Assembly: GCA_965224245.1 (NCBI GenBank)
Contig: OZ245046.1
Location: forward strand, 4,800,001 to 4,864,000
Reading direction: 5' to 3'
Length of the DNA: 64,000 nt
Source of the DNA: Candidatus Eiseniibacteriota bacterium
GTDB lineage: Bacteria; Eisenbacteria; RBG-16-71-46; CAZAMP01
Shown one piece after another: positions 5,003 to 27,688 of the stretch; positions within the stretch are counted from its first letter, which is position 1, and each line of letters opens with the position of its first letter. The position numbers were made by a program, and so were the translations under genes. The notes beneath the pieces were generated by a model. It was not told the DNA's origin, did not search any database, and saw only the letters and a list, made by a program, of their open reading frames with translations.

Positions 5003-7157
5003 CCGCGACCTCCCCTCCGGTGCTCTCTGGTACCTGGCTGCGCTCGGGTCGTGACGCGGAGATCGCCGCGGGAAGAACGACCTTGAACTGCGTGCCCGTC
5101 CCGAGATGGCTCCGTGCGACGAGCTCCCCGCGGTGGGCCTGAACGATCAGCCGGCTCTGGTAGACCCCGAGTCCGAGGCCGCCGCGCTTGGTCGTCGAGA
5201 AGGGGCGAAACAGTCGATCGCGGAGGAACTCCTCGGTCATTCCCTCGCCGGAGTCCTCGACCGAGATCACGACGACGTCGCCGCTCGCGCGCGACTCCTC
5301 GGCCGTCTCGATCGTCAGACTCCCTCCGTGGGGCATGGACTCGACGGCGTTGGTCACGAGATTGACGACCACGCGGAGCAGCATGGTCTCGTCGCCGCGG
5401 ATGTGGTGTGCGGCGTTGCTCCGGCAGGTCACCTCGATCGCCGGGCTCGCGCCCGCCGCCGTCTCTGCCAGGGCGGTCTTCACGAGCTCGTTCGGGTCGA
5501 GCAAGGAGTCCCGGCGTTCGGACGACTGGCGCAGCTCCGAGAGGTTGTTCACGAACCGCTGCATCCGCACGGCGACGCGGTCGAGATCCTCGGCACACAC
5601 CGCGCTGACCTCGGGATCGCCACCCCGCTCCTGGAGGTTCCGCACCGCCATCCGGAGCGGCGCGAGGTGGTTCTTGAGGTCGTGAAGCAGCATGCTGCTC
5701 CACTGCGAGATCAGCTCCATCTCGCGGGTCTCCGCGAGCTCCCGAGCCAGATCGCATGCACGAAGCGTCGACGCGATGTGCGCGGCGACGCTCTCGAGCA
5801 GGGTCGCGTCCTCGTAGGTGAAGGGATCGTCCGAGCTGGTCCGCGCGATGCCGACCACGCCGAGCAGCTGTCCGCCCTCCAGGAGCGGCACCAGGACCTG
5901 GCTCGCGGTACCGTCCAGCCAGTCGTCGTGCTCGGCGTAGATCGGAATGTAGGCGAAGTCGTCCGCGGCTCGATCGAGGATGATCGCGTTCCGGTTGACA
6001 CTCAGATGGTCGAACAGGGGCGTGTCGGGCCGGAGCGCGAGACCCCGTCCGACGCCCTTGCCGGTCACGGGGCGAACGTCGCCGGCGCCGCGATCGACGA
6101 GCGAGATCGTGACGACGTCGGCCAGGAAGACGCTCTCCAGGACCGTGACCGCCCGGTCGAGCACCTCCTGTCGATCCGACGTCGAGGCGAACGACTCGGT
6201 GACGAACGACCACTGGCTGCGGTAGTCGTAACGATTCACGTAGAAGTTGCGGTCGATGAACCGGCGGACCAGTCGTTGAAACCGGTGCGAGAAGATCAGG
6301 AGCGTACCCGCGAGGAGAATCAGGATTCCCGACGAGATGATCAGGACCTCATCGGGTGACGAGTTCGTCCACACTGCGACCTGGGCGGCGAGGCCGGCCG
6401 CGATCACGAAGAGCCCCGCCGCCAGGGCCGTGAACGACGAGTACACGAGCTTGCGCGACACCGGCGCCGCGACGTCCGTGAGGGATCCCCTCATGTATCC
6501 GTAGCCGACCAGGATCGAGGTCAGGCTCACCGGCAGGCCGGCCGCGACCATCTTGCCCAGGCCGAGGGACGAGTAGAGCATGCCGCTCACGAGGACGAAC
6601 GCCGCGTAGCCGGTCGTGAAGAACATGCCGAGCAGCGGCAGATGCATCCGCGTGCGCATCTCGGGTGGCGCGACCCGCAGCGTCTTCTCGAGGTTGTAGC
6701 CGATGAACACGAGCCCGCACATGATGTACGTCAGATACGCCTTCCCGATGTAGCCGAGCAGGATGGTCGCGCTCGGCTGGTCGGCGGCGACGCCCGATAC
6801 GAATCGACGGCTCGACAGACCGCAGAGGAGCGCGACGCCAACGATCGCGAGCAGGAGGATGTTCCGCCGCGAGGCGTGGAGCGAGTCCGCCGGGTTCTCG
6901 CGGCCGAACACCAGCGTGAACGCGTACGCGGCCAGGACGACGGGCGTGGCCATCGCCAGAATCCACTTCGCCACCACGGTGTCCGGTTCGCTCGCGTGAA
7001 GCAGTGACAGAATGAGCCCCAGGAGAACCGCGGTCGTGATGGAGAGAAGGGCCGTCGTCAACAAAAGCGGCCGCGATCGTCCGCGGATGACCACCGCACC
7101 GACGGGGAGCGCCGTCGATACCATGCTGGTGATGAGAAGCGCCTGCTGGATCGTCAC
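4980..7157 (-). CDS. prsK: PEP-CTERM system sensor histidine kinase PrsK type (multi-TM, GAF, HisKA, HATPase)
   Basis: True start is GTG 7157 (GTGA overlap). About 9 TM segments, FIDRNFYVNRYDYRSQW, H-box LLHDLKN, FRPFSTTK, GLGLGVYQSR. Confidence 0.85.
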   Translation of the reverse strand: MTIQQALLITSMVSTALPVGAVVIRGRSRPLLLTTALLSITTAVLLGLILSLLHASEPDTVVAKWILAMATPVVLAAYAFTLVFGRENPADSLHASRRNILLLAIVGVALLCGLSSRRFVSGVAADQPSATILLGYIGKAYLTYIMCGLVFIGYNLEKTLRVAPPEMRTRMHLPLLGMFFTTGYAAFVLVSGMLYSSLGLGKMVAAGLPVSLTSILVGYGYMRGSLTDVAAPVSRKLVYSSFTALAAGLFVIAAGLAAQVAVWTNSSPDEVLIISSGILILLAGTLLIFSHRFQRLVRRFIDRNFYVNRYDYRSQWSFVTESFASTSDRQEVLDRAVTVLESVFLADVVTISLVDRGAGDVRPVTGKGVGRGLALRPDTPLFDHLSVNRNAIILDRAADDFAYIPIYAEHDDWLDGTASQVLVPLLEGGQLLGVVGIARTSSDDPFTYEDATLLESVAAHIASTLRACDLARELAETREMELISQWSSMLLHDLKNHLAPLRMAVRNLQERGGDPEVSAVCAEDLDRVAVRMQRFVNNLSELRQSSERRDSLLDPNELVKTALAETAAGASPAIEVTCRSNAAHHIRGDETMLLRVVVNLVTNAVESMPHGGSLTIETAEESRASGDVVVISVEDSGEGMTEEFLRDRLFRPFSTTKRGGLGLGVYQSRLIVQAHRGELVARSHLGTGTQFKVVLPAAISASRPERSQVPESTGGEVAGVRVIQT

Positions 7158-8662
7158 GGCATGGCCTCCCCCCGGAGGCGGTCGGCCTCGGAGCTGGCCC
7201 AGAGACCGACGTCGGACCGGGGCTCCATCGCGGCGATCCGGTCGAGGATGTCCACCGTGCGGGCCGTGTCCGCGAGCTGGGACATGGCCAGCCGTGCGGC
7301 ATCCACGAGCACCAGCGCGCCCGTCCGGGTGCTGCCGGCGACCTCGCCCAGCCGCTCCATCTCCGTGACCGCGCCGGCGAAGTCCTCGTTCAGCATGAGC
7401 GACTCGGCCAGCTTCCTGCGGGCCAGGAGTGTGCGGTCGCTCGGTGGGAAGCGCTCGATGAAGTCGCGGTACTCGCGTACGGCTCGGGTCAGGGCCTCCT
7501 TCATCGCATCGGTCTCGCCGGTGGTGCGGTAACGGAGCGCGATCTCGAGCGGCGCCGTCAGCGCGGCCTCGCTGATCGGGTGCTCCACCGTCAGCTCGCG
7601 GTAGGCGGCGAGGGCGTCGGGCCAGCGTCCGTCGATGGAGGCCATGAGCCGGGCCCGTGTCAGCATTGCGCCGGATACGACGTCGTCGGAGCCGATCTCC
7701 AGCGCGCGAAGCCGGTCGATGTAGCCGATCGCTTCCTCGATCTCGCCGCGCGTGGCCGCGTTCCCGGCCAGCGTCACGTAGACCTGCGGGATGAACGGCG
7801 AGGAGGGATAGTCGTCGATGATGGACTGGAGCAGGGCCCGCACGTCTCGCTGATCGGCGCCCGAACGTGCGTGAAGGTCGGCCCGGCGAAGGCGGAAGCC
7901 CTCGGGCGGGAACCTCTCGGACCCGGTATCGCGGGCCCACTCCTCGAGCGTCACGAGCTGCCGCTCGGCCGAGGACCACTCGCGGAGATCCACGCTGATC
8001 TCCGCCAGGAGAGTCTGGGCCGAGGCCCCGAGCTCCGTCCTGTCCTCGGTCTCGACGATGGCCTCGTAGTACGCCCTGGCGGCCGCGTAGAGTGACGGGC
8101 GTTCGGCCTCGGACGCCTCACCCGCCCGGAGCCGCGCGATCCGGAGATACAGGTCGAGCTCCATGCCGGCCTCGTTCGCGGCGGGCGTGGTCAGGTCGGC
8201 TCGGGAGACGACCTCGGAGTAGTACTCCGCGGCCTGGAGCGCGCGTCCTCGCCGCTCCGCGATCGCGCCCTGGGACAGCGCGGCCTGGGCGACGATCGCG
8301 TCCATGTCCGCGTAGCGCTCGCGCATCGCTCCCAGCGTCTCCAGGACGGCGGCGGTGTCGCCCAGCGCACTCTGGATCTGAACCGCGCTGAACGCTGCCT
8401 GGGCCGTCGCCCGGCGGATCTGACGGCCCACGAGACTCGTGTCACCCTCGACGTGTGCGTATCGAGGCGGGATGGCCTCGTACAGGTCGATCAGTGCGTG
8501 CCACTGGTCACGCGTGACCAGATCGGGGCGAACGGCCAGGTTCCGGTACTCGTAGTCGGCCAGCCACACGTCGCGGTCCGCCCGAAAGCGATCCCCGATC
8601 CTCGGGTCCACGCACCCGACGACGAGCAGCCCCAAGAGCGCGATCCACCGGGAGTCCCTCAT
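7154..8662 (-). CDS. TPR-repeat lipoprotein (PrsT-like position)
   Basis: Start ATG 8662, MRDSRWIALLGLLVVG-C lipobox; TPR/BamD-like repeats (IDDYPSSP, VEHPISE, IERFPPSD). Confidence 0.75.
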   Translation of the reverse strand: MRDSRWIALLGLLVVGCVDPRIGDRFRADRDVWLADYEYRNLAVRPDLVTRDQWHALIDLYEAIPPRYAHVEGDTSLVGRQIRRATAQAAFSAVQIQSALGDTAAVLETLGAMRERYADMDAIVAQAALSQGAIAERRGRALQAAEYYSEVVSRADLTTPAANEAGMELDLYLRIARLRAGEASEAERPSLYAAARAYYEAIVETEDRTELGASAQTLLAEISVDLREWSSAERQLVTLEEWARDTGSERFPPEGFRLRRADLHARSGADQRDVRALLQSIIDDYPSSPFIPQVYVTLAGNAATRGEIEEAIGYIDRLRALEIGSDDVVSGAMLTRARLMASIDGRWPDALAAYRELTVEHPISEAALTAPLEIALRYRTTGETDAMKEALTRAVREYRDFIERFPPSDRTLLARRKLAESLMLNEDFAGAVTEMERLGEVAGSTRTGALVLVDAARLAMSQLADTARTVDILDRIAAMEPRSDVGLWASSEADRLRGEAMP

Positions 8663-25411: not shown

Positions 25412-26026
25412 TCACTCGCGCGATCGTGTGCCGACGTCCTCCGGGAGCCACCGGGAAGTACCCGTCCGTGTCGTGTACGCGCACGCCGGTACCGCATCCG
25501 GCGAGGCCGCGCCCGTCGCGCACTCGTGCTCGAAGCGCCACTCCACGAGCGGCCGATCGGCGTGCTCGCCGGCATCGTCCAGGTACGTGGTCAGCCCGAA
25601 GTCGGGGGTGCACCACCACCAGTCCACGTCCTCGATCCCGGTGCCCGCGCTGGCTGCTCCGATCATCTGCTGATAGCGGATGACCAGTCCGCGCAGGTAG
25701 TGCGCGGGTCGCTGGCCGATCGGGGTGGAGTCGTACGCGATCATCGCGAGGAGGCCGCCCCGGAAGTCGAGCCGCACCTCGACGCGCTCACCGAGGAGAA
25801 TCGTCGCGAACGTCCAGCCCTCGCCGCCGTAGCCACGCGACGCGAACGCGCGCGCGACCTCCTCCTCGGTGCTGCCCAGGGGCGCGATGGCCGGGAGCAA
25901 CAGGAGATCGGTCTCGGTCAGGGGCGGGACGCCGGACCCGCCCGACACGTGCTCGGCCTCGCAGCCCACGCCGGCGGCCAGGGTGAGGGCCAGCGTCGCC
26001 ACGGTTCGTGGGGTCCGGATGGTCAT
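25412..26026 (-). CDS. Hypothetical lipoprotein
   Basis: MTIRTPRTVATLALTLAAGVG-C lipobox; no recognisable domain; C-terminal part uncertain. Confidence 0.55.
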   Translation of the reverse strand: MTIRTPRTVATLALTLAAGVGCEAEHVSGGSGVPPLTETDLLLLPAIAPLGSTEEEVARAFASRGYGGEGWTFATILLGERVEVRLDFRGGLLAMIAYDSTPIGQRPAHYLRGLVIRYQQMIGAASAGTGIEDVDWWWCTPDFGLTTYLDDAGEHADRPLVEWRFEHECATGAASPDAVPACAYTTRTGTSRWLPEDVGTRSRE

Positions 26027-26065
26027 GAAGGCGCTCGAAGTGGTTGCCGGAACGCGATGACGACA

Positions 26066-26101
26066 CGGGGAGCCGGCCCCTCGATGGGCGCCGGCTCCCC
26101 G
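26066..26101 (-). terminator. Stem-loop downstream of the thioredoxin-TPR gene
   Basis: CGGGGAGCCGGC...GCCGGCTCCCCG 12-bp stem; no clear U tract. Confidence 0.45.
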
Positions 26102-26127
26102 GGCATCACACGTTCGCGACGAGGGTG

Positions 26128-27315
26128 TCAGCCCTGGTCGGTCAGGATCTTCTGGAAGCGCTCCAGCTGCTCGGCGTAGTACTCGTTGTCCGGATCGTCG
26201 GCGATCGCCTTCTCGATCCACTCGATCGCCTCGCCGCAGTTGCCGAGCGCGTTGCAGAGCTCGGCCAGCGTGTCGAGAACCATCGCGCGCTCGGCGCCGG
26301 CCGGGGACAGCTCCACGCCGCGCTTGGCCAGCTCCTGCGCCTTCTCGAGCTTCACACCGTTCTCGAAGCACCACCAGGCCACCGAGTTCAGTGAGCTGCC
26401 GGTGTTCTCCCAGCCCTCGGGCATCGTGGCCACGTGAAGCTCGTAGGCCTTGTCACCGTTCCTCTCCACGTGAAGCGCGTGCTCGACCTGGAAGTGCTGG
26501 TGGTAGCGGGACAGCGACTCGTCGTCCCTGGTGGCCTCGAGCGCCCGGGTGATGAACGGGACGTACTGCGTATCGGTGTCCTCGGCCATCCGCCCCATCG
26601 TCATGACGACGTTGGCGATCGTTCGCGCATCGGGGTCGGCGGCCATGACCACCTGGGCCTGCTCGAACAGCGCGGTGCCGGTGTAGAGCCCCCGCGACGC
26701 GCCGCGGGACAGCGACTCGAAGATCATCGCATCGTAGTCGTGCTCGGTCGTGGTCGCGAGCTCGGCGGCGCGCCGGAAGTAAGCGATGGCCTCGGCCGGA
26801 TAGCCGCTGGCCTCGCGGATCGAACCGATCTTGCGCGCGTCGGCCTCGGTCTGCTCCTTGCCGAAGCGCCGCTCGCGAGCGCGGAGCGTCATCGCGTCGG
26901 CGAGGCGCTCGTTCGTGCTCTCGACGAACTCGGCCACGTTGCCGTAGCCGAGCCAGCGGTCCATGGTCTCGGCGTCGCCGTTGGTCAGGATGAACGTCGG
27001 ATAGCTGGTGACGTTTCGGGCGCGCGCGATCTCGCGGCCGAGCTCGTCGGCCTCGGCGTCCAGCTTCAGCAACACGACGTTGTCGGTCAGGTACGACTGC
27101 ATGGTGGCGTCCTCGTTCACCGCACGGGCGAACCTCTTACAGGAGCCTCACCACGCGGTGCCGAGCTCGATCAGAATCGGCTTCTCATTCTCGGCGGAGA
27201 GCGTCTTGGCTTCCTCGAGCGATGTGGCTCCGAGGCCAAAGGCCGGGCTCGCGCCCAGCGCGACCGCGAGCGCCAGCGTTCCGACCACGCGGCCGGAGCG
27301 AACGTTCAACATCAT
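26128..27315 (-). CDS. Exported thioredoxin-fold + TPR protein, probable selenoprotein (Sec at UGA 27150-27148)
   Basis: ORFs 27148..27333 and 26128..27120 are in one frame, separated by a single TGA: KPILIELGTAW-U-GSCKRF...LKLDAE...VTSYPTFIL (cis-Pro loop), then TPRs; signal peptide at N-terminus. Confidence 0.85.
27106..27147 (-). promoter_or_regulatory. Putative bacterial SECIS element
   Basis: Immediately 3' of the UGA: GGCUCCU...GUUCGCC-CGUGC-GGUGAAC...AGGACGCC hairpin; apical loop begins 22 nt after the UGA. Confidence 0.6.
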
Positions 27316-27688
27316 CTTCCATCCTTTGGTCACGGTCCGCCGGATTGCGAACCGCCGTTACGAGTGTCGAACACATTGGACCCGATCTCGACCCGCCGGT
27401 CACTCTCCCCCCGGCCGGCGCCGGGACCCGAGATCGTCACATGCGGGTATGATGACATACTTCATTCGTCCTCGGGTGATGGCAGCGCCGAGGCGGGGAA
27501 TTGTATGCAGCGGCGGCCGTGTACGGACGGCCGGGGGCGGTTTTGGCGCTCGTCCGGAGGCCCGGGAGTCTCCGTCCGGGGGCTTCCTGGTGCGGTCAGG
27601 GGGCCTCTGATACCATTGCGACATCACACCGTCTCGAGGAGGGCTCGCGCCGGGGCCCGTCGAGACGGGCGCGTTTCCTGGAGGCGTC

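Follow-up and report, generated by a model that had tools for sequence, protein, structure and literature searches.

A predicted exported thioredoxin-TPR protein of a Candidatus Eiseniibacteriota bacterium with an in-frame TGA almost certainly read as selenocysteine

Thioredoxin-fold proteins with selenocysteine (Sec) in the first position of the CxxC active site are a catalogued class of bacterial selenoproteins. Among 119 selenoprotein families, Table 1 of a 2026 inventory (PMC13188914) lists the UxxC thioredoxin (PF00085, an experimentally verified class), a predicted ‘Thiol:disulfide interchange protein’ (PF13098), a DsbG-like family and a Trx7/PDZ protein (NF041199) with a CxxU motif. CnoX/YbbN (PDB 3qou, 3qdn), described in the available part of PMC8129009 as a partner of the cytoplasmic GroEL/ES and DnaK systems, is a protein of about 280 aa with an N-terminal thioredoxin domain followed by C-terminal TPR, in which the first active-site residue is Ser in E. 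coli. In the periplasm, thioredoxin-like proteins are reduced by DsbD (PMC3322552, available part).

The gene described here lies in a 64,000-nt stretch of DNA (the window) and encodes a protein that shares with the catalogued UxxC class the position of Sec, an in-frame bacterial SECIS (bSECIS) and matches above the PF00085 and PF13098 cut-offs, but adds a TPR-like solenoid of 250 aa. Like NF041199, as far as Table 1 of the inventory describes it, it joins a Sec-bearing Thioredoxin_7-type domain to a protein-interaction domain, although the combination is UxxC with TPR here and CxxU with PDZ there, and NF041199 is absent from its matches. It is assigned to the catalogued UxxC class because of its domain and motif, the architecture being unlisted: no TPR fusion appears among the 119 families in the available part of the inventory, in the text of which ‘TPR’ and ‘tetratricopeptide’ have no occurrence, nor does ‘TPR’ occur in the available text of PMC2398784, PMC13326102 and PMC12013277. 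A literature search found no paper on an exported thioredoxin-TPR selenoprotein family, while supplements and the online BSepDB may contain members, in the latter case under a generic thioredoxin name. No NCBIfam model (e.g. TIGR01068, NF041199, NF045694, NF043050) scored above its cut-off for P0001, P0003, P0004 or P0010. A UxxC motif in a thioredoxin fold is no surprise to a specialist and the class is already known; what is new is the layout, signal peptide plus Trx7 plus TPR, which is well supported as that of a selenoprotein and has no name in NCBIfam or in the part of the 2026 inventory available. Features of the locus, in window coordinates, are as follows.

27322..27327, minus strand: Shine-Dalgarno-like AAAGGA, 6 nt 5′ of the ATG at 27315, identified by eye from the sequence.
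26128..27315, minus strand: full gene, 395 aa with Sec56; ATG at 27315 (alternatives ATG 27312 and GTG 27333), TGA stop at 26130-26128; defined from the frame and the family alignment.
27235..27315, minus strand: predicted Sec-pathway signal peptide, aa 1-27, with basic n-region, hydrophobic core and A-F-G before the likely cleavage site.
27148..27150, minus strand: in-frame TGA, the Sec56 codon, from the TGA column in 54/92 family loci and the Sec machinery in the genome.
27115..27133, minus strand: bacterial SECIS, a 7-bp stem whose 5-nt loop, CGUGC, begins 21 nt past the UGA and has G as its second base.
26893..27234, minus strand: thioredoxin domain (roughly aa 28-141) containing the U56-G-S-C59 site and, in YPT, the cis-Pro loop (P106), from Pfam, the model and structure matches.
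26131..26892, minus strand: all-helical TPR-like solenoid (roughly aa 142-395) in which LNxxAWWCFE (C316) and LDTLAE are conserved, from Pfam, the model, Foldseek and conservation.
26067..26100, minus strand: GC-rich inverted repeat with 11-bp arms, 28 nt past the stop, lacking a U-tract, from the sequence.

An earlier sequence-only reading had proposed that an ORF caller splits this gene at one TGA placed exactly at the first Cys of a thioredoxin WCxxC motif. Translated with TGA as Sec (U), the gene is indeed a 395-codon frame (27315-26128, minus strand) ending in a TGA stop, and its sole internal TGA lies at W-U-G-S-C (ELGTAW-U-GSC-KRFAR); calling with table 11 cuts it into a 61-aa ORF (27333-27148) and a 330-aa ORF (27120-26128). 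Both pieces are as that reading claimed, the 5′ piece carrying a signal-like N-terminus and the KPILI strand and the 3′ piece the YPT motif (P106) and the TPR matches. On both sides the sequence looks coding, with GC3 of 0.85 before the TGA and 0.94 after it, and treating the TGA as a stop would leave the downstream piece with neither signal peptide nor active site. Mis-annotation by standard pipelines, also foreseen, is what the protein database contains, its entry for the contig (P0002) being the 324-aa downstream piece only. A scan for sigma-70 promoters and intrinsic terminators at the locus returned none, leaving the inverted repeat at 26067..26100 uncalled as well; its sequence makes a terminator or an RNA-stabilising hairpin possible. 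UGA56 is almost certainly read as Sec by SelB and Sec-tRNA with the help of the in-frame hairpin, giving a U-G-S-C site, on the strength of the sequence comparisons that follow.

Homologs carry TGA or Cys at this column, as had been expected from the single sequence, with Ser in a few. In a first search, 19 of 61 genomes of the same class proved to carry full-length copies, 30 in all (16 TGA, 14 Cys). A second, with one genome per species, confirmed 162 stretches; among the best 80 of these 162 loci the site was readable at 77, representing 82 genes (48 TGA, 30 Cys, 4 Ser), with L089 (a further frame break) and L091 and L104 (site unaligned or off the contig) left out of the counts. Merged, the searches comprise 92 distinct loci (including the best 80 of 162), 54 with TGA, 34 with Cys and 4 with Ser at the Sec56 column, and TAA or TAG was found at this column in none of the 92. 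Since 54 of 92 loci share TGA at the same column, its placement is not due to chance. Record titles place family members in Ca. Eisenbacteria, Krumholzibacteriota, Zixibacteria, Acidobacteriota, Gemmatimonadota and others. Of the best 150 matches when 1.84 billion representatives were searched with a profile, 81 begin past the Sec codon, 68 cover the site (65 with CxxC) and one is unclassified; truncation therefore appears to be the rule for this family in databases, although some of these may be contig-edge fragments. The family thus brings in members from poorly studied phyla and corrects a systematic annotation error.

Trees (a quick tree and FastTree) are unrooted and do not set the direction of change between Sec and Cys. 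On the FastTree tree the Sec label must change 12 times, with no fewer than 5 of these changes forced by strong branches, and the window protein groups with two further Sec proteins as sister (support 99) of a 15-member Cys/Ser clade. A member of that clade, a Cys paralog with motif WCSVC and 39% identity to the window protein, is encoded in the same genome (G000). With at least 5 forced changes, SECIS relics in Cys members and Sec-competent genomes holding Sec and Cys paralogs side by side, the family offers good natural material for studying what makes periplasmic proteins keep Sec or lose it. Sec copies lie in tandem or nearby pairs with a divergent CxxS/CxxT copy in L086, L100 and L101 (about 6190-7600, plus strand) and with a CxxC copy in L097 (3626-4855) and L139.

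The hairpin after the window TGA pairs positions +15 to +21 with +27 to +33 after the UGA. In the available part of PMC13188914 the bSECIS consensus has a loop of 3-9 nt, a stem of 4-16 bp, G in the first two loop positions, spacing of 16-37 nt and MFE of at most -7.5 kcal/mol; the window hairpin agrees in all of these (5 nt, 7 bp, G2, 21 nt, -8.1 to -9.7 kcal/mol). Taken alone it proves nothing, because SECIS-like hairpins follow 210 of 732 candidates in a loose scan of G000 (TGA plus hairpin, open frames) and because the region folds no better than shuffled sequence (z 0.19 to 1.36 for the 60-100 nt after the TGA, with 0.19 at 60 nt; z -1.18 for 47 nt, not significant). The family comparison carries the weight: a stem with at least 5 of 6 pairs and G at loop position 2 is present in 54/54 TGA loci and 0/38 other loci. 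Across 43 TGA sequences 97.7% of cells pair and four of the seven pairs vary on both sides (compensatory), a pairing level reached by 0 of 500 shuffles and compared with 36-54% in slid windows. The closing pair in 45 distinct sequences is C-G in 36 and U-A in 9 with no mismatch; few lineages account for the covariation, about two clades in the case of the U-A closing pair. For the loop Arg, CGT or CGG is used in 15/15 cases and CGC in none, CGC making up 45% of Arg codons in G000. Two Cys members retain parts of the element: L028 (1630-1665) keeps a 6-bp stem and has lost the loop G, and L140 (5043-5080) keeps the loop and has lost the stem, its genome being the one of 29 in which selA was not found. 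These apparent SECIS relics suggest Sec-to-Cys losses, within an unrooted tree.

Genome G000 (6.94 Mb, 97% complete, 69% GC) encodes the Sec machinery that the sequence-only reading had made a check of its proposal: selA (E 7e-128), selB (324 bits), selC (tRNA-Sec, anticodon tca, 71.9 bits) and selD, the last with an in-frame TGA of its own. TGA-carrying genomes of the class have selB in 14/14 and selA in 13/14, the genome with no selA match being 81% complete, and selA was found in 14/14 other TGA-carrying genomes. Such co-occurrence discriminates little, since the Cys-only class genomes also have both selA and selB (4/4) and only carrier genomes were counted.

The protein is predicted to be exported by its signal peptide and to fold into two parts, a thioredoxin domain and then a TPR-like solenoid. 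Cleavage is likely after A-F-G, and an N-terminal hydrophobic stretch is present in all 80 scorable homologs (8 lipobox-like) by a simple heuristic, not a dedicated predictor, in line with the periplasmic location first suggested for the window protein alone. Pfam scores exceed cut-offs for Thioredoxin (PF00085, 39.4 > 23.5 bits), Thioredoxin_2 (PF13098, 37.1 > 27) and Thioredoxin_7 (PF13899, 48.4 > 27), and for TPR_12, TPR_14, TPR_2 and TPR_8. AlphaFold2 with a 103-row alignment gave a thioredoxin domain then an all-helical solenoid (pLDDT 96.9, pTM 0.91). C59 and P106 are invariant in the family alignment (A1), the cis-Pro being assigned from the motif, not from geometry, and C59 is kept in 75/75 aligned rows. 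The most conserved stretch of the family is in the C-terminal TPR part, where C316 (26368-26370, WWCFE) is present in 99/103 rows; C354 (26254-26256; 60 rows) and C360 (26236-26238; 44 rows) are a variable pair that could form a structural disulfide, to judge by the alignment.

By VIA, the thioredoxin domain matches DsbH (2ju5) and a putative Bacteroides disulfide isomerase (2kuc) with Z 14.7 and rmsd 2.3-2.5 over 112 residues, ordinary thioredoxins lying within about 1 Z unit, and the C-terminal part matches common TPR domains. Unlike the window protein, the DsbH and 2kuc chains are short (144 and 121 residues as aligned) and have no TPR part, at 16-26% identity. The best thioredoxin-type profile match is 2kuc (E 2.5e-22), with the DsbD C-terminal domain also among the best, and the ESM Atlas returned only generic thioredoxin/TPR clusters. 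With the whole protein, Foldseek places consensus TPR proteins first and YbbN at ranks 4-5 (TM 0.24, rmsd 22 to 3qou).

CnoX shares the domain order and a variable first position of the active site (Ser in the E. coli protein, against Sec, Cys or Ser in the family described here), but the present family differs from it in length (about 395 aa) and in having a signal peptide, as far as the hydrophobic-stretch heuristic goes. PF14559 and PF14561, which we take to be CnoX-type TPR subdomains, are respectively below cut-off (16.7 < 25 bits) and absent in the window protein; PF14561 gave only two marginal matches among long ORFs of G000. Predicted export and the type of TPR rule out identity with CnoX. 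By analogy, the protein may work like a chaperedoxin without being one.

The favoured reading of the whole chain, which we hold to be probable with real room for others, is an exported Sec-dependent thiol/selenol oxidoreductase fed by DsbD, with the TPR arm binding clients. SelB and Sec-tRNA would decode UGA56 aided by the hairpin 15-33 nt downstream, the signal peptide would direct export, and the thioredoxin domain and then the TPR-like solenoid would fold. In the periplasm Sec56 would act as nucleophile on client disulfides or oxidised cysteines, with Cys59 resolving the selenenyl-sulfide, and a DsbD-type membrane protein would presumably re-reduce that bond, for which the available part of PMC3322552 offers a precedent. 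The TPR arm would select or hold envelope clients, whose wrong disulfides or oxidised cysteines would be reduced or isomerised. G000 has two DsbD-type genes elsewhere (C1, near 4.03 and 4.41 Mb), and dsbD adjoins no Sec member among 60 scanned neighbours. The window gene itself is flanked by a divergent Transglut_core2/TPR gene on one side and, downstream, by a gene with no Pfam match (25412-26026, minus strand; 204 aa, lipoprotein-like N-terminus), then an aminotransferase and an MFS transporter. Neighbours of Sec members are scattered families, none common to them (60 scanned of 85 picked), with aconitase-like, amidohydrolase, DUF4136 and DUF5916 genes limited to lineages.

The same selenoprotein could instead work chiefly as a redox-switched holdase or sensor of the periplasm, whether chaperedoxin-like or feeding into ECF-sigma signalling, in which the TPR part does the main work and UxxC serves as switch or as guard of client cysteines. 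We consider this unlikely, though it has several points in its favour: the CnoX/YbbN-like domain order (PMC8129009, available part), the concentration of conservation in the C-terminal TPR, and the make-up of the sister clade. Motifs in that Cys/Ser clade include SxxC, SxxS and SxxA, and since one or both of the active-site cysteines are missing from some relatives, redox chemistry seems dispensable for some members. An ECF sigma gene lies directly downstream in 12 of its 15 loci, followed in 10 by a gene for a small single-TM protein with no Pfam match, here called a putative anti-sigma factor. Against this reading stand the 54 loci that keep Sec and a SECIS, which suggests that catalysis is under selection, the weak overall match to YbbN, and the lack of an adjoining ECF sigma gene at the window gene and its two Sec sisters.

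The ECF-associated arrangement (thioredoxin-TPR, ECF sigma, putative anti-sigma) was seen at L041 (3819-6510, minus strand; G000:C1 about 5010800-5013500) and at L061, L063, L065, L070, L071, L077, L078, L079, L085, L090 and L134, and several of the putative anti-sigma proteins end in a YRDEPD motif. Complex prediction for the Cys paralog at L063 and the periplasmic tail of the putative anti-sigma scored 0.02. TGCAACC-N17-CAC lies upstream in 12 of the 15 loci, counted on the same sites from which the motif was derived; in another the spacer is 1 base shorter, and one locus lies at the edge of its contig. A separate Sec clade has GGAAC-N16-CGT upstream, a motif that precedes 11 of the 45 Sec-encoding loci, 10 of which belong to a single lineage, versus 3 of 192 control windows; as GGAAC-N16-CGTA it lies 250-330 nt before the TGA in the Krumholzibacteriota-labelled loci L075, L081, L087, L111, L115, L121, L124, L125, L128 and L132. 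From their consensus shapes we take both motifs to be ECF promoters. The window gene has only weak sites for either (ranks 2785 and 22570 of 12.9 million), also at the matching distance, the best score in the window being 1.4 versus 26.4 for the Cys paralog. Neither this gene nor its two Sec sisters has a strict match, which speaks somewhat against the holdase or sensor role. In G000 the paralog site ranks second for TGCAACC-N17-CAC (C1, 5013696, minus strand), and two other strong sites (5075458, minus strand; 2334941, plus strand) precede a GntR-like regulator and an exported TPR/alpha-beta-hydrolase-like gene, labels given by reading the sequences; the three sites, each of the form TGCAAC-N18-CAC, are a candidate small ECF regulon.

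ECF-type promoters in these two clades suggest, by extension, a role for the family in envelope stress. A more far-reaching conjecture, which we think doubtful, is that the family is an exported counterpart of chaperedoxins whose active site moved repeatedly among Sec, Cys and Ser, the Sec form repairing envelope proteins while a sister branch lost Sec, then Cys, and joined an ECF-sigma/anti-sigma operon that regulates itself, to serve there as sensor or co-regulator in the periplasm. On this view, since G000 has both copies, the Cys copy under ECF control might be an inducible substitute that needs no selenium, or a regulator, for the Sec copy.

Other redox roles for a genuine selenoprotein, as a DsbA-like oxidase, a cytochrome c maturation reductase or the donor to one enzyme (e.g. 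a periplasmic peroxiredoxin), seem less probable again. Such roles are known for exported thioredoxin-fold proteins (PMC3322552, available part), and the residues between U and C vary across the family (GS, GA, GP, PS, SA), so that the redox potential cannot be read from the dipeptide. However, the thioredoxin domain is closest to DsbH, DsbD-gamma and thioredoxins, DsbA does not occur in the structural and profile matches listed for it, and no ccm, dsbB or peroxiredoxin gene recurs beside the family in the 60 scanned neighbours. A DsbD-fed reductase or isomerase with a client-binding arm remains the preferred reading.

That the TGA is simply a stop, through nonsense mutation, assembly error or a true division into two genes, is very improbable. 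This is how gene callers and the protein database handle it, and one TGA homolog (L089:5073-5260), with its SECIS intact, breaks frame again 61 codons on (assembly error or decay); but the same codon recurs at the same column in several phyla, always as TGA and with a covarying hairpin, and the frame stays open for 335-351 codons after it in 47 of 48 TGA members, the 48th reaching a contig edge. Sequencing error, which the sequence-only reading had left as a way to overturn it, is contradicted by contigs from other runs and samples that carry the TGA. Two runs of one sample, possibly the source, gave contigs over 26000-27600 with 0 differences to the window; a second sample of the same study gave a 147-nt contig across the TGA codon with 0 differences and only 23 nt on one flank; and a low-depth relative from another study differs close by and not at the TGA codon. 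That Trp or Cys is inserted at the TGA, by a suppressor or because the whole genome is recoded, can be set aside for practical purposes, nothing having been found in its favour: TGA terminates 491 of 696 long high-GC3 ORFs on contig C1, which excludes genome-wide recoding as the earlier reading had argued from neighbouring genes, and the only G000 tRNA with anticodon tca is tRNA-Sec.

From its sequence the source organism looks selenoprotein-rich, although the TGA-plus-hairpin scan was rejected as a list of its selenoproteome, being too loose at the pass rate given above. Other likely selenoprotein sites among those listed by that scan on G000:C1 are 4156964, 4437671, 4920231, 319722, 2704515, 4276597, 2360128, 5175363 and 2987867, with UxxC thioredoxin-like contexts and three CxU UshA-like ones. 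A more distant thioredoxin lineage, belonging to another family of the class (L053, L054, L055 and L056), has TGA at the same column in the motif DFYTDW-U-xWCKALE, followed by a hairpin that differs from that of the thioredoxin-TPR family.
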